Shown: piece by piece, positions 414-55,586 of the stretch | Numbering within the stretch: the first letter of the stretch is position 1 | Layout of the letters: the number at the start of each line of letters is the position of its first letter | Assembly: GCA_002328025.1 (NCBI GenBank) | Contig: DCVE01000013.1 | Span: 42,579-106,578, forward strand | Length of the DNA: 64,000 nt | Source of the DNA: Patescibacteria group bacterium UBA2196 | GTDB lineage: Bacteria; Patescibacteriota; Patescibacteriia; UBA2196 | Reading direction: 5' to 3' | Made by a program: the position numbers and the translations under genes | The notes under the pieces: generated by a model | Database searches by the model: none | Seen by the model: only the letters and a program-made list of their open reading frames with translations | What the model was told of the DNA's origin: nothing

Positions 414-1529
414 ATGAAAATAGCTCAAATAACGTGTGTTTATCCGCCTTATGGTGGTGGAATTGGAAAAGTTGCCGCCATGCAAAGCAATGGTTTGTCT
501 GAATATGGTGAAAGCGTGGAGGTGTTTACGCCTGACTTTGGTGGTGAAAAAATAACAGGCAAAAATTTTAAAATTAATTACTTGAAGCCGGTTGTCAAAT
601 ATGGTAACGCGGCTTTTTTGCCGCAACTTTTATGGCGACTAAAAGGTTTTGATACAATAATTTTACATTATCCTTTTTTTGGTACACTAGAAATCTTATG
701 GTTTATAAAAAAAATCGGTTTTTGGAGAGGTAAGATTTTTGTTTATTATCACATGGATTTTATACCAACAAATTTATTTTTGAAGTTTTTTTCTTTACCT
801 AGTCGTATGATTTTAAAATCATTTTTAAAAATGGCCGTCAAAATTATGGTGCAGTCACTTGATTATACGATGCATTCTAAATTAAAAAATTTTTATTTGG
901 CGTATAAAGATAAATTTGTAGAAATAGCTTTGGGAGCTGATTTAAAACCAATAGTTTATAAACAACAACAGATGGTCAATGAAAATTTTATTTTGTTTGT
1001 GGGCGGAATGGATCGGGCGCATTATTTTAAAGGGGTGGATGTTTTATTAAACGCATTTAGCCAATTAGTTTTACAACACCAAAAGATAAAACTGTTTTTA
1101 GTTGGCGATGGTGATTTACGGGCAGAATATGAAAAATTAGCTATGGATTTGGGTTTAACAGAAAAAGTAAAATTTTTTGGCAGAGTAAATGATGTAGAAA
1201 AAGAACAGCTTTATAGTGAATGTGAATTTTTAGTTTTACCGTCGATTAATTCCGGTGAGGCATTTGGTATGGTATTGGTGGAGGCCATGACTTATAACAA
1301 AGCAGTTGTGGCAACGGATTTGTCTGGTGTGCGCATGGTGTGTAAAGACGGAATTAATGGGCTTTTAGCGCGGCCTGGAGATATAAAAGATTTAGCAGAA
1401 AAAATGCAGATACTTTTGGCAGATCAAAAATTACGCAGTAGGTTTGGCGAAGCTGGCAGAAAAATGGTAGAAGAAAAATTTAATTGGAAAGCGCATGTTA
1501 ATAAGTTGGAAGAAATTTTAAATTTTTAA
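414..1529 (+). CDS. glycosyltransferase family 1 (GT4-like)
   Basis: C-terminal GT1 motif EAFGMVLVEAM...; typical 370 aa length. Confidence 0.8.
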   Translation: MKIAQITCVYPPYGGGIGKVAAMQSNGLSEYGESVEVFTPDFGGEKITGKNFKINYLKPVVKYGNAAFLPQLLWRLKGFDTIILHYPFFGTLEILWFIKKIGFWRGKIFVYYHMDFIPTNLFLKFFSLPSRMILKSFLKMAVKIMVQSLDYTMHSKLKNFYLAYKDKFVEIALGADLKPIVYKQQQMVNENFILFVGGMDRAHYFKGVDVLLNAFSQLVLQHQKIKLFLVGDGDLRAEYEKLAMDLGLTEKVKFFGRVNDVEKEQLYSECEFLVLPSINSGEAFGMVLVEAMTYNKAVVATDLSGVRMVCKDGINGLLARPGDIKDLAEKMQILLADQKLRSRFGEAGRKMVEEKFNWKAHVNKLEEILNF

Positions 1530-1532
1530 TTT

Positions 1533-2249
1533 ATGGTTTATATTGTTATTCCAACCTATAATGAAAAAGAAAATATTGAAAAATTGGTACGCGAAATTTG
1601 TAAACAACCAATTAGAGGTCTACGTGTTTTAATTGTGGATGACAATTCTCCCGATGGCACCGGTAAAATAGCCGATAAACTAAGTTTAGAATTACCGGTG
1701 GATGTTTTACATCGTGAAAAAAAACAGGGTTTGGGCGTGGCCTATCGAGCGGGATTTAAATATGCTTTGCAAAAAGGCGCTGATTTTATTTTTGAAATGG
1801 ATGCTGATTTTTCGCATCAGCCTCAAGATTTATCGCGGTTGCTTCTAGAATGTCAAAATGGTGCGGCTTTAGCTATTGGTTCACGAAAGGTTAAGGGCGG
1901 CAAGATTATAGGTTGGAATTTTAAAAGAAAATTATACTCCAACGGTGCCATGTGGCTGGCTAAAATTTTATTAGGTTTAAAAACACGTGATATTACGGCT
2001 GGTTTTCGCTGTTTTCGAGCCGAAACTTTAAAAAAGATAGATTATGAGAATATCCAGAGTAATGGCTATGCTTTCCAAGTAGAAATGGTTTATCGTTTAG
2101 AAAAAGCTGGTCTAAAAATTACAGAAGTGCCAGTCGTTTTTCCAGATCGAGAATTTGGAAAATCAAAGTTGAATAGAAAAGATATAATTGAATTTTTTAG
2201 GAAAGTATTTAAACTTTTTTTGTATCGTATTTGTAAAAATAAAGTATGA
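1533..2249 (+). CDS. GT2 polyprenol-phosphate glycosyltransferase (dolichol-P-mannose synthase-like)
   Basis: N-terminal IVIPTYNE...VDDNSPDGT; DxD-type GT-A fold signature; start is 4 bp after the upstream stop. Confidence 0.8.
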   Translation: MVYIVIPTYNEKENIEKLVREICKQPIRGLRVLIVDDNSPDGTGKIADKLSLELPVDVLHREKKQGLGVAYRAGFKYALQKGADFIFEMDADFSHQPQDLSRLLLECQNGAALAIGSRKVKGGKIIGWNFKRKLYSNGAMWLAKILLGLKTRDITAGFRCFRAETLKKIDYENIQSNGYAFQVEMVYRLEKAGLKITEVPVVFPDREFGKSKLNRKDIIEFFRKVFKLFLYRICKNKV

Positions 2250-3601
2250 ATTATTTATTGAAAAACAAATTTAATATTTTATTTGTAGTATTTTTTTTGT
2301 TGCTCTTTGCTTTTCGTTTACATAATGCTATAAATTTTAATTCTTACTGGGGTTATGATGGTGGAGCGCATTTGGAATACATAAAAACTGCGATGCAAAA
2401 CTGGAGACTGCCGACAATGGCAGAAAACTATTTGGCCTGGCATGAGCCGGGTTTTTATTTTTTAAACGCTTTATTGGGGTGGGCAACGCAACCAATTTGT
2501 CAGGCTAACTTTTTGGGTTGTACAATTAAAATTTTACAAATAATCTCTTCTTTTATAAGTGTTTTTTTAATTTTTTTAGTTTATAAAATAGCACAAAAGT
2601 TTTCAAGTGATAAAAAAGTTTGGCTGGCGTCCGTAATTGGTAGCAGTTTAATTTCGGTGATGACCGAAACGGCCAATTATTTGACCAATGAATTATGGGT
2701 GGCTTTTTTAACACTCTTATTAATTTATTATTTTATTATTTTTTCACAAAAAGGCTGGAACAAAAAAAGAATTATTTTAATGGGCATACTTTCTGGTGTG
2801 GCCTTGTTAATAAAATTGTCGGCAGTTATCTTTGTGTTGGCGCTTTTGATATGGTTTGTTTATAAAGCCTTTTATGAGTGCAAAATTAAATGGTTGTGGT
2901 ATGGCTTATTGTTTTTAGTGGTGGCGGGCGGTATTTATGCGCCGTGGATTTTTTATAAACAAAAACATTTTGGGAATGGTTTGTCTATAAATATTTATGA
3001 AGACCAACTTAATGACAAAGGAATTTTATCTAAAAATTTTTTTTTGCACGTTAGTGGTGAGATATTTAGGCAGCCGTTTTGGATGAGTTCAAAAGATTCT
3101 TTTTTTAGTGTGGTGTTTGCCGATGCTTTTAGCGATTATTATACAATTGCCAATAATGTTGATAAAAATAATTTAAATTTTCCAGCCGACCAGAAAATTT
3201 TGACTGAAAGCGGTAATTTGGTAAGTGTTAAAAAATTTCAATTTTCAATTTTATTGTTATATTTTTCTTTGGTGTTTATTTTTATTTTTGCTGCTGGCGT
3301 GCTAGGATTATTTTGGTATTGGATAAAAAATGGTTTTAGACCGAATGTTAACTTTTTCTTTCTAATTTTTATTGGTGGTTCTTTTTTAGCCCTGGCTTTT
3401 AATGTGTACAAATTTCCGTTTTTGGAGCGCGGAACTTTAAAAGCGAGTTTTATTCTGTCAGTTTGGCCGTTACTCATGATTATCAGCTGGGCCTGGCTGA
3501 GTATGGTTTTAAAAAAATTTAAATTTGAATTTTTATGGTTAGCGGTTTGGTTTTTGATTTTAATTTGGTCAGTTTTTTCTGTGGCTATTAATTGGATATA
3601 A
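2246..3601 (+). CDS. integral membrane GT-C fold glycosyltransferase (ArnT/PMT-like)
   Basis: more than 10 predicted TM helices; sits downstream of the GT2 polyprenol-P sugar synthase, the typical pairing. Confidence 0.6.
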   Translation: MNYLLKNKFNILFVVFFLLLFAFRLHNAINFNSYWGYDGGAHLEYIKTAMQNWRLPTMAENYLAWHEPGFYFLNALLGWATQPICQANFLGCTIKILQIISSFISVFLIFLVYKIAQKFSSDKKVWLASVIGSSLISVMTETANYLTNELWVAFLTLLLIYYFIIFSQKGWNKKRIILMGILSGVALLIKLSAVIFVLALLIWFVYKAFYECKIKWLWYGLLFLVVAGGIYAPWIFYKQKHFGNGLSINIYEDQLNDKGILSKNFFLHVSGEIFRQPFWMSSKDSFFSVVFADAFSDYYTIANNVDKNNLNFPADQKILTESGNLVSVKKFQFSILLLYFSLVFIFIFAAGVLGLFWYWIKNGFRPNVNFFFLIFIGGSFLALAFNVYKFPFLERGTLKASFILSVWPLLMIISWAWLSMVLKKFKFEFLWLAVWFLILIWSVFSVAINWI

Positions 3602-3607
3602 TATTTT

Positions 3608-4792
3608 ATGAAAATTTGTTTAATCAATAATTTATACGATCCCTATACCAAAGGTGGGGCAGAAACAGTGGTAAAAGCTACAGCTGATGGTTTGGTTAAA
3701 AACGGACACACCGTCATGATAATTACCGCCGGTAGAAAAGATGAAACAATTGAGCAAGATATTAAAATTTACCGCATCAGGGCGTGGAATTTTTTTTCTT
3801 TTTTTGACATTGATAAAAAACCAGCTTTTCTGCGTTTAGTGTGGTGGTTTTTTAATATTTTTAATTTAAGTGTTGTTAAAAAAGTTGAAAGAATTTTACA
3901 ACAAGAACACCCAGATTTGGTGCATACGCACAACTTAAGTGGTTTGAGTTTTTTATTACCACGCAGTATTAAAAAATTAAAAATAAAACACATCCATACT
4001 TTGCATGATATTCAATTGGTTTATCCGTCTGGGCAATTAATTTATGATCAAGAAAAGAATTTTATTAACACCTTTTTTTTAAGGGTTTGGTATGAAAAAT
4101 TAGTACGTACGTTGTTTAATTCGCCACAAATAATTATTTCACCTTCGCAGTGGCTGTTAGATTTTTATCTGAAAAAGAATTTTTTTACCCACAGTCAAAA
4201 GGAATTGGTTTTAAACCCAAGCACTCAAATTTTTGATGGTCAACTTAGATTACCAAAAATTAAAGTTGATGAATTTAATTTTTTATATGTGGGCAGGGTG
4301 GAAGAATATAAAGGGATTATGTTATTAATACAAGCTTTTAAAAAAATATCCATGAGTGATAAAAAGGTTTTTTTACACATTGCTGGTACTGGACGCGAAA
4401 TGAAAAAAGCACATAGTTTGGCTGCAGAAAGCGAAAATATTTTTTTCTATGGTCAATTAGAAAGAGAACGTTTGACAGATTTGTACGGACAGGCGCAAGT
4501 TTTGATATTACCAACTTTGACCTATGAAAACGCGCCAACAGTTATTGTGGAAGCTTTTAGCCGTGGTTTGCCTGTTATTGCCTCTAATCTTGGCGGGATT
4601 ATTGAATTAGTACAAGAAGATAAGACGGGTTTTTTGTTTAAACCAGGCGACATTGAGGGTTTGGTAAAAACCATGTTGAATGTTTTAGATAATGACAACC
4701 TAAATAATTTAAGTCAGAATTGTTGGCAACGCGCTAAAAAACATAATTTAGACATGTATATAAAAAGGCTGGAAGAAATTTATTTAAGCTAA
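3608..4792 (+). CDS. glycosyltransferase family 1
   Basis: KICLINNLYDPYTKGGAE N-term; C-term E-x7-E GT1 motif (VIVEAFSRGLPVIAS). Confidence 0.75.
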   Translation: MKICLINNLYDPYTKGGAETVVKATADGLVKNGHTVMIITAGRKDETIEQDIKIYRIRAWNFFSFFDIDKKPAFLRLVWWFFNIFNLSVVKKVERILQQEHPDLVHTHNLSGLSFLLPRSIKKLKIKHIHTLHDIQLVYPSGQLIYDQEKNFINTFFLRVWYEKLVRTLFNSPQIIISPSQWLLDFYLKKNFFTHSQKELVLNPSTQIFDGQLRLPKIKVDEFNFLYVGRVEEYKGIMLLIQAFKKISMSDKKVFLHIAGTGREMKKAHSLAAESENIFFYGQLERERLTDLYGQAQVLILPTLTYENAPTVIVEAFSRGLPVIASNLGGIIELVQEDKTGFLFKPGDIEGLVKTMLNVLDNDNLNNLSQNCWQRAKKHNLDMYIKRLEEIYLS

Positions 4793-5616: not shown

Positions 5617-5990
5617 AAGGGGTGGGTGAGCAATCGCCCTAATATCCGCTAATTGGTGGATTGTTGGGGAGGAAAGTCCGGACGCCACACAAAGGATAGT
5701 TCTGAAACAGAACCGAGCATAAGAAATACAAGAAAAATAAGTTACGATCGTTTTATTTTTCTTGGTCAATTTTAAAACTCCGAGCAAGCGCCACAGAAAA
5801 TAAACCGCCTTGTTAGTTAAAAGACTCACGAGGTAAGGATGAAACCGCGGTGTAAGAGACCACGCGCTTCTATGGTGACATAGATTTGGGTAAGCCTTAT
5901 CCGGCGCAAGTCCCTTTAAAAGGACGCGTTAGATAGATGATTGCATTCCGTTTAGACGGAAACAGAATCCGGCTTATGATCCCACCCTTT
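5617..5990 (+). ncRNA. rnpB: RNase P RNA (bacterial type A)
   Basis: conserved P4 strands GGAGGAAAGTCCGGAC and AACAGAATCCGGCTTA; terminal P1 pairing AAGGGGTGGG/CCCACCCTT; GC-rich in an AT-rich background; no ORF. Confidence 0.85.
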
Positions 5991-6012
5991 GGATATATAA
6001 GAATTTTAATTT

Positions 6013-20182: not shown

Positions 20183-20413
20183 ATGAATATACAAGAAAAA
20201 ATACAACAAGAGTTAGATTTAATTCGTCCGCATTTACAAATGGATGGGGGAGATGTGGAGCTGGCGGAATTTGACGAAGCTACGGGTGTGTTGAAATTGC
20301 GTTTGCAAGGGCATTGCGCAGGTTGTCCCATGAGTCAAACAACTTTGCAAGAAGGCATTGGCCGGGCCGTGAAAGAGAAAGTTTCGGAAGTTAAAGAAAT
20401 TGTGGCGGTGTAA
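20183..20413 (+). CDS. Nfu/NifU C-terminal-domain Fe-S cluster carrier
   Basis: CAGCPMSQTTL CxxC motif; 76 aa. Confidence 0.7.
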   Translation: MNIQEKIQQELDLIRPHLQMDGGDVELAEFDEATGVLKLRLQGHCAGCPMSQTTLQEGIGRAVKEKVSEVKEIVAV

Positions 20414-20422
20414 AATAATTTT

Positions 20423-22828: not shown

Positions 22829-25063
22829 ATGAATTTTATTTTTGATTACAAAAATATAATTTTGGTTGTTATTGCCCTATGCAATTTGATTTTAGGTTTT
22901 TTTGTTTTGTTTAATGGACTAAAAAGAAATAGAAAAATTAATATTTATTATTTTTTACTAAGCATCGTGGTTTCTTTGTGGGCTTTTGGCATGATTATGT
23001 ATCGAGGTTCGGTTGAGGTGGTAGATAAAATTGTGTGGTGCCGGTGGTTATATGTTTTTGCCACATTTATTCCAACCGCATTTATCTTTTTTTGTTATAA
23101 TTTTTCTGGCCGTGAAATAAAATTTCGCTGGTGGTACAAATTAATAATATTGGTGTTAAATTATGGCGTTGTTTGGATCTCTTTGTGGCCAACGGGCGGT
23201 GTAATTATGGATGTCACAAAAAGAGCTTTTTTTGAGGATCAGATTATTTTTGGTCCGTTGTATATGTTGTACAACATTTATGTACCAGCCATGTTCGCGT
23301 GGGGATTTTGGATTTTATATTACAAATATCGTCAGACGGATGGAATTGCCAAGATGCAAATTAAATATGTTTTTTGGGGAACATTTTTATCTTCAGCCTT
23401 GGGCATGAGTACCAATTTAATTTTACCAACCTTTGATTATTTTGAATTGAATTGGTTGGGGCAGGCTTTAACTTTGGTGATGGTGGGATTTATTGCTTAT
23501 GCCATTATTCGCTATCGCCTGATGGATATTAAGATGGTTTTTTCAAAATCCATTATTTATTTTTTCTTGGTTTTGTTTGTGACCGGATTGTTTAGTTTTT
23601 TTACCCTGTGGACTGGGAGCAGTTTAATTCCGAGCTTAAACATAACTCAAAAAGTTTTATTAACGGTGATGATTTCGTTTATGGTGGTGCTAATAATGGA
23701 TCCATTAAAAAAATTATTAGCTAAAATTACTGATAAAATATTTTTTCGAACCAGAATTGACCACATAAAAGTTATTAAAACACTGACGGATATTATTGCT
23801 TCGGAAATTGATAAACGGGTTTTGATAAACAAATTATGTTTTGGTGCCAGGCAAGAATTGCGCGTGACGGCTTTTAAAATATATTTAAAAAATAAAATTA
23901 GTGGCGTGTTTGGACCGGCTGTGGCCTTGGATAAAAAAGAGAATGCGTTTTCGGTTGCTAGCGGCAAAGCCTTGGAAAAATATTTTAATAAAAACAGGCA
24001 GGTAATATTTGTGGAAGAATTTTTATACGAACATAATTTTTTGGGGCATAAAGACGAATTGTTGGAGCGTAAAAAAAATAAAAAAACAAAAGACGATTTG
24101 GTTTTGATGATTGCGCAGATTGATGCCGAATTAATAGTTCCAATTTTTCATGAAGAAGTTTTAACAGCTTTCTTTGTTGTGGGTAAAAAATTATCAGGTG
24201 AGCAGTTTGATAAGCAAGATTTAAATTTGTTAGATTCGGTGGCCAGTCAGTTTTCATCAGCTTTGGAAAAGGCCGAACTGTATAATCAAGCGCAAAAATT
24301 TAGTCAAAAATTGAAACACGAAGTGGAAAAAGCCACCAGTGACTTAAGGCATGCCAATGAACATTTAAAAAAATTGGATGAAGCAAAAACCGAATTTATT
24401 TCCGTGGCATCGCATCAGTTGCGTACTCCACTTTCTGGAATTAAGGGCTATCTGTCTATGCTAAAAGATGGTGACTTTGGAGTTTTGGAACCGAAAAAGA
24501 AAAAAATTGTCAGTGATGTTTTGGTTAATACCGAGCGTATGGTGCGCTTGGTAAACATTTTTCTCAATATTTCTCGCATTGAATCTGGTCGTTTAAAACT
24601 GGAAAAAACCAAATTTGATATTACAAACATGACCAAAGAAACTTTGCGTGAACTAAAAACCGATGCTGAGAGTAAGGGTCTAAAATTAGAATTTGCTGGC
24701 GTTCAGGAAAAGATAATGGTGAATGCCGACTGCGATAAATTACATGACGTGTTGATGAACTTGGTGGATAACAGTATAAAATATACAGAAAAGGGCGGGG
24801 TGACGGTTGAGTTACATAAAAAGAATGGTTTAGTCAGAGTCATGGTTAGCGATACTGGCATTGGAATTACTAAAGATGACATTGATGGTTTGTTTATCAA
24901 ATTTGGACGGGGTAAAAAAATTGCCCAAATTAATACCGCTGGTTCTGGATTGGGATTATTTATTGCTAAAAAAATAGTTGAACTGCACAATGGAAAAATT
25001 TGGGCAGAATCAGACGGCGAGGGAAAGGGTAGCGCGTTTAGTTTTGAAATTCCGGTTGAGTAG
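22829..25063 (+). CDS. sensor histidine kinase with multi-TM N-terminal sensor domain
   Basis: HisKA H-box SHQLRTPL; HATPase_c N/G boxes (DTGIGI, GSGLGL); start placed after the terminator at MNFIF. Confidence 0.8.
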   Translation: MNFIFDYKNIILVVIALCNLILGFFVLFNGLKRNRKINIYYFLLSIVVSLWAFGMIMYRGSVEVVDKIVWCRWLYVFATFIPTAFIFFCYNFSGREIKFRWWYKLIILVLNYGVVWISLWPTGGVIMDVTKRAFFEDQIIFGPLYMLYNIYVPAMFAWGFWILYYKYRQTDGIAKMQIKYVFWGTFLSSALGMSTNLILPTFDYFELNWLGQALTLVMVGFIAYAIIRYRLMDIKMVFSKSIIYFFLVLFVTGLFSFFTLWTGSSLIPSLNITQKVLLTVMISFMVVLIMDPLKKLLAKITDKIFFRTRIDHIKVIKTLTDIIASEIDKRVLINKLCFGARQELRVTAFKIYLKNKISGVFGPAVALDKKENAFSVASGKALEKYFNKNRQVIFVEEFLYEHNFLGHKDELLERKKNKKTKDDLVLMIAQIDAELIVPIFHEEVLTAFFVVGKKLSGEQFDKQDLNLLDSVASQFSSALEKAELYNQAQKFSQKLKHEVEKATSDLRHANEHLKKLDEAKTEFISVASHQLRTPLSGIKGYLSMLKDGDFGVLEPKKKKIVSDVLVNTERMVRLVNIFLNISRIESGRLKLEKTKFDITNMTKETLRELKTDAESKGLKLEFAGVQEKIMVNADCDKLHDVLMNLVDNSIKYTEKGGVTVELHKKNGLVRVMVSDTGIGITKDDIDGLFIKFGRGKKIAQINTAGSGLGLFIAKKIVELHNGKIWAESDGEGKGSAFSFEIPVE

Positions 25064-53039: not shown

Positions 53040-53759
53040 ATGTCAAGACTATCTGTTATCATTCCGGTTTATAATAATGCAAAAAATTTGTTAAAGTGTC
53101 TGCAAAGTTTGCAACAGCAGACAATTTTTGGTTTGTGGCCACAACAGGTGGAAATAATAGTTGTGGATGATGGAAGTATTTCTCCAATTGTCATTCCAGA
53201 TTTTATTCTGGATGATAAAATAAAAACATATCACATTGCACACGCGGGTGCAGCCAAGGCCAGAAATTTTGGTTTTGCCAAATCCACTGGCCAATATATT
53301 TTTTTCTGTGACAGCGATGTGGTTTTTTTAAAAAATAATGCTTTAGAAAAAATGCTAGCCATGTTGGAAACACACACAGACAAAGGATATTGTTATGCAG
53401 CTTTTAAATATGGTTTAAAAACTTTTCCTCTTTTTCCATTTGACGCAGAAAAATTAAAACACAATAATTATATTTCCACCATGACTTTGGTTCGTCGTAG
53501 CGCTTTAGAAAAATTAGTTTTTCCCAATTTGCCTTTTGACGAAGCTTTAAAAAGATTTCAGGACTGGGATTTGTGGCTGGCTTTATTGGAAAAAGGGGAG
53601 ACAGGTGTTTTTTTAGATGAAGTTTTGTGGCAGGCGCAGGTTGGCGGTTCCATGAGCAAGTGGTTGCCAAAAATATTTTATAAATTATTTAAAAATAATT
53701 TAAAGGTGCAAGAGTATCAAAAAGCCAAAGCAACGATGGAAAAGAAATATGGTTTATAA
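53040..53759 (+). CDS. glycosyltransferase family 2
   Basis: LSVIIPVYNNAKNL...IIVVDDGS GT-A N-terminus; DSD motif. Confidence 0.75.
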   Translation: MSRLSVIIPVYNNAKNLLKCLQSLQQQTIFGLWPQQVEIIVVDDGSISPIVIPDFILDDKIKTYHIAHAGAAKARNFGFAKSTGQYIFFCDSDVVFLKNNALEKMLAMLETHTDKGYCYAAFKYGLKTFPLFPFDAEKLKHNNYISTMTLVRRSALEKLVFPNLPFDEALKRFQDWDLWLALLEKGETGVFLDEVLWQAQVGGSMSKWLPKIFYKLFKNNLKVQEYQKAKATMEKKYGL

Positions 53760-53819
53760 AATTAGATTATTTTTTTTGGCTAACGTTAAATGAAATTATG
53801 GCTTAAAAACTTTATTTAC

Positions 53820-53848
53820 TTGACTTTTTTAAAATCTTTAAATATAAT
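53820..53848 (+). promoter_or_regulatory. consensus sigma70 promoter for the candidate ncRNA
   Basis: TTGACT-17-TATAAT. Confidence 0.45.
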
Positions 53849-53854
53849 AATTAT

Positions 53855-54224
53855 GCAAGGTCTTGGAGCGACCTTTGCACATTGCAGGGCTTTTTAACAC
53901 AAAACGGGAGGATGGGAATGCAACTCAAATTTGAAATATGAGTTACATAGAGGTCGACTGCCTGAAATAAAGTTTCAAGGACGCGGGAAACTGCGATCCG
54001 AAACTTCAGGTGGTTTTTCCTCACCCGGCGACATTTCAGGGGATTTTTAATCCCCTCCCTCACACCCATACCACACCGAAAAGTCTCATTGAGACGCTAA
54101 GCTCACGGCACTATTGAGAGCACAGCGTTTTCATACATACGGACCTAGTAAGTTTCTGTGGGTCGGGTTGATTTTAAGGGCTAGAACTCTGCTGTACCTC
54201 GGTACACAGTTCAGCCCTTTTTTT
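53855..54224 (+). ncRNA. candidate structured non-coding RNA of unknown class (~370 nt)
   Basis: bracketed by a consensus promoter and a strong terminator (GGGCT.GAACT...AGTTC.AGCCC plus T7 at 54178-54224); GC ~48% in a 30% GC genome; only tiny ORFs; 5' hairpin AAGGTC/GACCTT; internal GGGGATTTTTAATCCCC hairpin. Confidence 0.35.
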
Positions 54225-54325
54225 ATTTGCTTTATATTGTTTTTTCTTTTAAAATTAGAGTGTATTTTGGGTTATTTGTTGGTTGGCCAGCGATATATAT
54301 TTAATAGTTAATTATTCATCTTTTT

Positions 54326-54397
54326 GCCCCCATCGTCTAATGGTTAGGACACATGGTTCTCAGCCATGTAATTGGGGTTCGATTCCCCATAGGGGTA
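54326..54397 (+). tRNA. tRNA-Glu (anticodon CUC)
   Basis: cloverleaf by eye: D-stem GTCT/GGAC; anticodon stem CATGG/CCATG with loop TTCTCAG; T-arm TGGGG-TTCGATT-CCCCA; acceptor has one C-A mismatch and a G-U pair; CCA not encoded. Confidence 0.65.
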
Positions 54398-54452
54398 AGA
54401 AGATGAATAGTTAATTGGGTGGTGTGAATTTTATTATCCGTGAATATTATTT

Positions 54453-55586
54453 ATGAGAAAGAAATTACCTTTTTTGCAAGCCATTGCAGTTTTGGTGGGC
54501 ACCACAGTCGGCGCTGGAATTTTGGGTTTGCCGTATGTTTTTGCGCAGGCTGGTTTTTGGACTGGCTTTTTGGTTTTAGTTGTGGTTGGCTTGGCCATGC
54601 TGTGTTTAAATTTAATGTTTGGTGAAATTGTTTTAAGAACAAGCGGTCAGCATCAAATTTCGGGTTATGTGGAAAAATATTTAGGCAAATTTTGGAAAAG
54701 ATTTGTGTCCGTATTTTTAGCCATAACTTTGTTTGGCGCTTTGCTGGCTTATTTTGTGGCCATTGGTCAGGCCTTGGCTGCCATTATTGGCGGACCAGCT
54801 TTGATGTTTAGTTTATTATTTTATGTTGTTTTTGCCGCTTTGGTTTTTAAAGGTGTGGGCGTGATTAAAAATGCAGAATTTATCTTGGGCTGTCTGGTGT
54901 GGTTGGTGTTTTTTGTGTTAATTATTTTTTCGTGGCCGCACGTAAAAACCAGTCACATAACCGTTTTTAATTTTAAAAATATCCTGGCGCCTTTGGGGGT
55001 GTTGTTGTTTGCTTATTCGGGTAGTATTTCTATTCCAGCCATGAAAGAAATTTTGGTGGGTAAAGAAAAATTATTTAAAAAAGCAATTCTAATTGGAGTT
55101 TTAATCCCGGGGATTTTTTATGCCATTTTTTCTTGGGCTGTAGTTGGCGCGACTGGCCTTAATACAAGCGAAGTTGCCACCATTGGTTTGGGCCAACTAG
55201 TTGGACCTTTTATTTTGGTCGTCGGAAATATTTTTGCTTGTTTAACCATGAGCACGGGATTTTTGGCTGTTGGTTTAACACTAAAAGGAATGTTTAATTA
55301 TGACTATAAAATAAAACATTTTTGGGCCTGGCTTTTGACTATGGCTGTGCCATTGGTGATTTATTTTTTAGGTTTACATGATTTTATTAACATTCTCGGT
55401 TTGGCTGGCGCCCTTGGTTTTGGTGTGGAGGGCGTGGTTTACGTGTTAACATTTTGGTATGCGCGTAAAAAAAGTGAACGTCAGCCAGAATATGTTTTGT
55501 CAACTGTTTTTGCTGTTATGGCCTCATTTTTTTTATTTTTAGTTTTTGGCAGTGGATTATTTTATACTTTAACTAATATTTTTTAA
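54453..55586 (+). CDS. amino acid permease (aromatic amino acid/TyrP-Mtr-like family)
   Basis: 11 TM helices; N-terminal VGTTVGAGILGLPY motif. Confidence 0.65.
   Translation: MRKKLPFLQAIAVLVGTTVGAGILGLPYVFAQAGFWTGFLVLVVVGLAMLCLNLMFGEIVLRTSGQHQISGYVEKYLGKFWKRFVSVFLAITLFGALLAYFVAIGQALAAIIGGPALMFSLLFYVVFAALVFKGVGVIKNAEFILGCLVWLVFFVLIIFSWPHVKTSHITVFNFKNILAPLGVLLFAYSGSISIPAMKEILVGKEKLFKKAILIGVLIPGIFYAIFSWAVVGATGLNTSEVATIGLGQLVGPFILVVGNIFACLTMSTGFLAVGLTLKGMFNYDYKIKHFWAWLLTMAVPLVIYFLGLHDFINILGLAGALGFGVEGVVYVLTFWYARKKSERQPEYVLSTVFAVMASFFLFLVFGSGLFYTLTNIF

Follow-up and report, generated by a model that had tools for sequence, protein, structure and literature searches.

The stretch of about 370 nt that separates a glycosyltransferase operon from tRNA-Glu(CUC) in the window (the whole 64-kb stretch of DNA analysed here) is predicted, with moderate confidence, to be a lineage-specific, independently transcribed gene for a modular, multi-hairpin, non-coding sRNA. 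A sequence-only reading of the same DNA had offered three options, namely a lineage-specific sRNA, a riboswitch or attenuator for the downstream permease, or a decayed remnant of foreign DNA, and the first of these fits best: the locus is non-coding and structured, its promoter and terminator are conserved, and it belongs to no Rfam family. We found the general features of an sRNA gene here, with a promoter and a terminator of its own, no conserved long open reading frame (ORF), and helices conserved above the neutral rate. It would count as an orphan bacterial sRNA.

The locus fills the gap between the stop codon of the glycosyltransferase operon and the intrinsic terminator of that operon (T), with a flippase, a GT4 glycosyltransferase and a GT2 glycosyltransferase upstream and tRNA-Glu(CUC), an aromatic-amino-acid-type permease, an exonuclease and MurG downstream (Table 1). 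The promoter described in the sequence-only reading is present and ranks second among the promoter-like sites in the 2 kb scanned; its transcript is predicted to start at about 53853-53856 and to run for about 370 nt from promoter to terminator. The terminator hairpin and its T7 run were also confirmed, with 16 pairs counted in place of the 15 bp first given. The hairpin (54178-54217) reads GGGCTAGAACTCTGCTGTACC-TCGG-GTACACAGTTCAGCCC, also given as the long interrupted pairing GGGCUAGAACUCUGCUGUACC/GGUACACAGUUCAGCCC, followed by seven T at 54218-54224, and has a folding energy of -18.6 kcal/mol; because the stem is interrupted, a simple terminator scan overlooked it. T doubles as the terminator of the upstream glycosyltransferase operon. 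A plus-strand promoter scan between T and the tRNA returned no site scoring at least 9/12. The sole promoter-like site in the spacer between them is weak (TTGCTT-17-TAAAAT, about 8/12 by eye), and the spacer itself is about 90-95% identical across three close genomes, well over the neutral rate.

Table 1. Features of the candidate sRNA locus and its surroundings. Positions refer to the window; identity is that between the window and the close relative L023.
Feature	Position	Strand	Identity to L023	Description
Promoter	53820-53848	+	0.90 (26/29)	Sigma-70-type, TTGACT-17-TATAAT, score 11/12
Module A	53855-54058			H1 to H4
H1	53855-53878	+	0.96	5'-terminal hairpin, GCAAGGUC-UUGGAGC-GACCUUUGC, 8 bp, 7-nt loop
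Linker	53879-53917	+	0.38 (53879-53904; 10-nt indel)	Fast-evolving; ends in G-rich GGGAGG (53906-53911)
H2	53918-53948	+	0.64 (53905-53949)	Hairpin enclosing the whole 7-codon ORF
7-codon ORF	53918-53941	+		ATG CAA CTC AAA TTT GAA ATA TGA, MQLKFEI
H3	53950-54022	+	0.93	73-nt four-helix hairpin, GAGG/CCUC - GACUGCCUGA/UCAGGUGGUU - AGUUUC/GAAACU - GGACGC/GCGaUCC
H4	54039-54055	+	0.94	Hairpin, GGGGAUU-UUU-AAUCCCC; DNA GGGGATTTTTAATCCCC
C-rich linker	54056-54091	+		UCCCUCACACCCAUACCACACCG..., mostly window-specific
Module B	~54092-54165			H6 and H7
H6	54092-54130	+	Absent in L023	Two-tier hairpin, in window and L011
H7	54135-54163	+		Weaker hairpin, 8 RNAalifold consensus pairs
T	54178-54224	+	0.96	Intrinsic terminator, interrupted 16-pair hairpin and U7
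Spacer, T to tRNA-Glu	54225-54324	+		100 nt, conserved
tRNA-Glu(CUC)	54325-54398	+		By ARAGORN, anticodon CTC in DNA; Rfam 54326-54397
Permease gene	54453-55586	+		3' of tRNA-Glu(CUC)

At 46.8% GC, positions 53855-54224 are far richer than the window as a whole (35.4%) and resemble rnpB (44.8%) and the tRNA (51%); the rnpB-like GC enrichment noted earlier was upheld, at a value slightly below the 48% or so first given. With the RNase P locus set aside, this is the sole large GC-rich stretch of the window that lacks a long ORF. Another GC-rich gap that appeared intergenic in the ORF screen, 20184-20414, is a 76-codon gene and not an RNA, and its product looks NifU-like with a CxxC motif. The minimum free energy (MFE) of the approximately 370 nt is -125.9 kcal/mol against a mean of -97.3 for shuffled sequences (z = -5.8), and the three genome versions of the locus gave z values of -5.8, -4.0 and -5.6. 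Since the reverse strand folds almost equally well (z = -5.5), the strand is assigned from the promoter and terminator alone.

We compared the window with Rfam 15 (4227 models) at gathering thresholds, and positions 53700-54330 at E <= 10 with permissive filters. Across the whole window, the gathering thresholds yielded RNase P (5618-5992) and the tRNA only, and in 53700-54330 nothing credible was obtained at E <= 10, the three matches to unrelated families being at chance level (14-19 bits). Among the loci of relatives, Rfam identified the tRNA only. ARAGORN detected tRNA-Glu(CTC) alone in the window, with no tmRNA, standard or permuted, and no second tRNA. These results agree with the earlier reading, which could not match the locus to RNase P, tmRNA, the SRP domain IV motif or a T-box. 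As specific candidates, a tmRNA was rejected, with neither an ARAGORN nor an Rfam match and, by eye, no T-loop and no CCA-proximal acceptor, as was a tRNA carrying a group I intron, with the Intron_gpI model absent at E <= 10 and no tRNA exon in 53855-54224. H3 and the C-rich linker resemble, by eye, the 3' end of 16S rRNA (helix 45 and the 1400 region), a likeness that we regard as coincidence because the elements come in the wrong order and SSU models give no match.

The gene order GT4, GT2, tRNA-Glu, permease is kept down to a permease identity of about 51-57%, and the nearest named homologues of the permease come from Patescibacteria/Parcubacteria MAGs. Six Logan assemblies (SRR943330-34 and SRR942941) contain contigs identical to the window. 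Close lineages at species level number three only, namely the window, L011 (SRR32414324) and L023 (GenBank DAOOQN010000001), with 93-94% permease identity; L100, from activated sludge, is identical to L023 in the RNA region. The tree of flanking genes is (window,(L011,L023)), and flanking nucleotide identity is about 88-89% between the window and either sister and about 92-93% between L011 and L023. Each of the three lineages has its own architecture: the window carries promoter, module A, module B and T; L023 and L100 carry promoter, module A and T, with module B absent; L011 carries a diverged copy of module B and T, with promoter and module A absent. Given this tree and module pattern, parsimony makes the arrangement A+B+T ancestral, with the sisters having lost different modules.

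Permease homologues were used to reach 80 genome loci by synteny, and these were searched with nhmmer and a covariance model of H2-H4; the RNA was found in L023 and L100 only, and the covariance model detected nothing in 30 other Patescibacteria loci. A metagenome scan with a two-block H3 pattern gave three matches, of which two were chance hits on unrelated GC-rich contigs and the other was L100. The RNA is seen in two species-level lineages only, within one small clade. In L012, L025 and L027, the tRNA lies 70-110 nt past the GT2 gene and the RNA is absent.

Another cassette occupies the interval between GT2 and tRNA-Glu in two more distant relatives (L015:2745-3066 and L021:4083-4605). It comprises a promoter of consensus type, a hairpin at the 5' end, a mini-ORF led by GGAGG (11 and 17 codons, respectively), GC-rich hairpins and an intrinsic terminator. 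We rejected it as a homologue, with no convincing alignment, no nhmmer match at E <= 1 and no covariance model match. Small transcription units that evolve fast seem to occupy the position between GT2 and tRNA-Glu time and again. In L011, approximately 400 nt between tRNA-Glu and the permease (1039-1430) hold three GC-rich perfect hairpins, GGTCGCCGCAAGCGGCGACC, GCGGGCTTTGCCCGC and GGCCGCCAAAGGCGGCC, and are followed by two extra genes (1431-3854) encoding a 226-aa protein without assigned function and a TPP-dependent enzyme; the whole of L011:1039-3854 looks like an islet inserted beside the tRNA.

To set a neutral yardstick, we used the four-fold degenerate sites of the flanking genes, which are about 66% identical between the window and L023. 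Both promoter hexamers, and the distance between them, are unchanged at the homologous L023 site, and L011 has no promoter-like site on the same strand. H1, which corresponds to the AAGGTC/GACCTT hairpin first noticed at the start of the region, is identical to its L023 counterpart at 23 of 24 positions, the single change turning a U-A pair into U-G. H3 is the most conserved part (66/71 identical; P = 8e-8 at the neutral rate), includes a 38-nt block that is identical in the two genomes, and differs only in loops, internal loops and wobble positions; we presume it to be the functional core. In H4, 16 of 17 positions are shared and the sole change is in the loop. T matches at 48 of 50 bases in 54175-54224 (P = 3e-7 under the neutral rate), its hairpin and T-run show no difference among the window, L023 and L011, and the block of T, spacer and tRNA is about 95% identical in all three. 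The identity of T and of the 38-nt H3 block exceeds what a plain terminator or helix needs, in carriers that differ at about one-third of neutral sites. The linkers behave otherwise, at 38-64% identity: over 53879-53904 the first falls to 38%, with GGAGG kept in both genomes, and the C-rich linker cannot be aligned to L023 or L011, L023 diverging after its first few bases. Conserved helices joined by freely diverging linkers are what a functional structured RNA should show, and not what decaying foreign DNA should show. In the SRR943334 assembly, one contig stops at 53987 and a second begins at 53985, so that the break falls inside the terminal loop of H3. Window and L023 also differ in this loop, a hint of strain-level polymorphism at that point.

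The substitutions also leave base pairing in place. With RNAalifold, which favours pairs that fit both input sequences, module A has 55 pairs, none of which is broken, with four one-sided changes that still pair and two compensatory changes; when the window's own MFE structure was applied to module A, broken pairs arose in the divergent linker only. Module B and T together, compared between the window and L011, have 39 RNAalifold pairs with none broken and two compensatory. Within module B, H6 keeps all 13 pairs at about 70% identity, two through compensatory changes and four through one-sided changes that still pair, and H7 has one-sided changes in four of its eight consensus pairs, some of which break under the window's own MFE structure. 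Because each module is represented by only two distinct sequences, covariation has no statistical power, and with two sequences per module the retention of pairs is suggestive of structure.

The mini-ORF encoding MQLKFEI does exist, at 53918-53941 and not at 53925 as originally placed, and it is preserved in L023 as GTG CAG CTT AAA TTT CTT ATT TAA (MQLKFLI), with 6 of 7 residues kept despite 8 differences in 24 nt, of which 3 are synonymous. The hairpin that surrounds it accounts for these changes as well: H2 pairs the start codon with CAU at 53946-53948 and places the stop codon in its 3' arm, no pair is broken in 53905-53949, and the paired positions show two changes that are wobble-compatible and one that is compensatory (C-G to U-A), the same changes being synonymous or stop-to-stop when read as codons. 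The ribosome-binding site that the sequence-only reading had counted as evidence carries little weight in a host whose genes do without Shine-Dalgarno (SD) sequences, which are absent from 46 of the 49 long ORFs of the window. Many window ORFs have TATAAT 5-11 nt before the ATG (for example at 22829, 50213, 10837 and 3608), which suggests that most mRNAs may be leaderless or nearly so. The SD-less genes of the window fit the reported loss of the anti-SD from 16S rRNA in a subgroup of Parcubacteria (PMC9297842). Since the substitutions maintain H2, the start codon is tied up in a helix and initiation in this host is not SD-led, the 7-codon ORF is probably a by-product of hairpin H2.

Longer reading frames fared no better, and the earlier claim that the region has no ORF is supported. 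Indels of 10, 2 and 1 nt relative to L023 and of 3 and 1 nt relative to L011 break every longer ORF on both strands. Among those rejected were a 72-aa reverse-strand ORF (53851-54069) and a 65-aa ORF (54114-54311), both disrupted by frameshifting indels in relatives, and a leaderless ORF starting at ATG 53852 (14-residue peptide MQGLGATFAHCRAF), whose ATG is AAG in L023.

Other explanations have to be weighed against an sRNA gene. That the locus is functionless, being either a long, hairpin-rich 3' UTR of the glycosyltransferase operon or a decaying remnant with a fortuitous promoter match, we judge unlikely. Such a reading would draw on the deletion of different parts in the two sister lineages, the confinement to one small clade, the near-neutral sequence evolution of module B and the chance promoter matches that AT-rich DNA gives (12 observed against 6.1 expected in 2 kb), but H1, H3 and H4 (93-96%) and the promoter (90%) lie far above the neutral level of about 66% while adjacent linkers diverge, and no supported helix carries a disruptive substitution. 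The same conservation speaks against the earlier suggestion of decayed foreign DNA, as do the searches for a source: the 64-kb window holds no second copy, distant blastn against phage and plasmid collections returned only chance matches to the AT-rich promoter, and two exact-pattern scans of viral contigs (H3 and T) gave 0 matches. A mobile element, MITE or phage remnant was rejected on the single copy, the lack of similarity to mobile DNA and the L023-type locus in the same context. It is quite unlikely that the region is instead a cis-acting leader in which transcripts from the 53820 promoter are stopped or passed at T to set expression of tRNA-Glu(CUC) and the permease, a control that might resemble a riboswitch or a T-box or depend on a leader peptide. 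As in known attenuation leaders, promoter, structured RNA, terminator, tRNA and amino-acid transporter follow each other on one strand, and the elements keep strand and order in three genomes; the conserved T-spacer-tRNA block, the lack of a plus-strand promoter of at least 9/12 between T and the tRNA, and the short ORF inside a hairpin would also suit this reading. However, pairing of the upstream RNA with the 5' arm of T was no better than for shuffled sequences (RNAduplex; window, L023 and L011), leaving the locus without an antiterminator; the distance from the conserved core to T differs by about 115 nt (about 155 nt in the window, about 40 nt for L023); and L011 retains T, tRNA and permease without promoter or core, features that together speak against the riboswitch or attenuator first proposed for the permease. 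Further differences from attenuation leaders are the 100-nt spacer and tRNA gene that separate the terminator from the first coding sequence and the lack of any family match, no T-box or riboswitch being detected at E <= 10, and in L012, L025 and L027 the tRNA follows the glycosyltransferase closely with no such RNA between them. The sixth codon of the mini-ORF specifies Glu (GAA) in the window but Leu in L023, and SD sites are unused in the genome. A T-box was rejected specifically, with RF00230 nil at E <= 10, no antiterminator, and a candidate GAG specifier (53950-53952) that is GGG in L023; so was a leader-peptide attenuator, in which the ORF is conserved but the antiterminator and SD-led initiation are absent and the ORF-to-T distance shifts by about 115 nt.

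We also considered it very improbable that the 7-codon ORF is translated, as a micro-peptide gene, part of a dual-function RNA or a regulatory leader peptide. Its length, a valid start (ATG/GTG), a stop (TGA/TAA) and six of seven residues are all retained, and GGAGG stands 5-6 nt 5' of the ORF in both genomes; yet every substitution is equally explained by H2 (two A-U pairs become G-U, one C-G pair becomes U-A, and the remaining changes are in the loop), the start codon takes part in a helix, most long ORFs of the window lack an SD-like sequence and many are apparently leaderless, and seven residues are at the extreme low end for functional peptides. RNAIII/hld, SgrS/SgrT and SR1/SR1P are dual-function sRNAs, and the locus shares with them a long multi-hairpin RNA bearing a short conserved ORF; it differs in that the ORF is limited to 7 codons, all of them within one hairpin, in a host without SD-led initiation, and that base pairing fully explains its conservation. 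Least credible of all, to the point of being nearly negligible, is a strongly diverged universal RNA missed by covariance models, such as 6S RNA, tmRNA, SRP RNA or an intron-split tRNA. The size of about 370 nt and the GC enrichment recall rnpB and tmRNA, and Patescibacteria tRNA genes are rich in group I introns overlooked by annotation tools (PMC13011429). Against this, models of 6S, tmRNA, SRP and introns gave zero matches even at E <= 10, ARAGORN found neither a tmRNA nor a second tRNA, and no T-arm, 5'/3' acceptor pairing or SRP domain IV motif was seen; the absence of promoter and core in L011 and of a module in L023 would be unexpected for a universal RNA, and the RNA of the window was also not found in the 30 other Patescibacteria loci. 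Like RNase P, tmRNA, 6S, OLE, ROOL, GOLLD, HEARO and raiA RNAs, the locus stands out from an AT-rich genome as a strongly folding, GC-rich island, but unlike the large GC-rich RNAs of Rfam it matches no covariance model and occurs in two species-level lineages and not across a phylum.

For the favoured sRNA gene, we propose the following model. Transcription from the 53820-53848 promoter would begin at about 53855 and end at the shared terminator, yielding an RNA built as a string of independent hairpins, H1-H4 of module A, H6-H7 of module B, and T. The RNA may act in trans through H3 and its neighbouring helices, which would form a binding platform for a protein or another RNA partner, while module B and the linkers may be dispensable spacers or stabilisers and the 7-codon ORF a by-product of H2 that is presumably not translated. 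The function would be accessory, because each sister has deleted one module and L011 the promoter as well. That L011 has lost promoter and core, and L023 module B, shows the RNA to be dispensable, and it may be heading for decay.

The closest parallels are sRNAs embedded in 3' UTRs with a promoter of their own, of the enterobacterial MicL and DapZ type, which measure about 80-300 nt. The locus resembles these in having its promoter at or just past the end of the upstream operon, in sharing the operon terminator, in the terminator hairpin being the best-conserved element, and in its restriction to a lineage. It differs in being longer (370 nt), in a promoter that lies after the stop codon and not within the coding sequence, and in its host, an uncultured Patescibacteria-type bacterium.

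The wider importance of the RNA is, for now, limited, because it was seen in a single small clade whose other close members each lack some of its parts. Patescibacteria genomes are tiny and hold little non-coding DNA; a dedicated 370-nt RNA gene is therefore costly and probably does something. To our knowledge, next to nothing is known of regulatory RNAs in Patescibacteria (CPR). The three close genomes, with their three architectures, offer a tidy case of module-by-module sRNA evolution. A more far-reaching proposal, which we regard as a long shot, is that H3 is bound sequence-specifically, as a platform, by a protein or by the ribosome and, together with T, defines a new class of Patescibacteria-specific regulatory RNA. 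If this were true, other members of the class would have diverged past sequence recognition, with the L015 and L021 cassettes as functional counterparts, and the RNA would be a regulator tied to a cell-envelope glycosylation cluster or to the supply of tRNA-Glu in an organism with SD-less translation.
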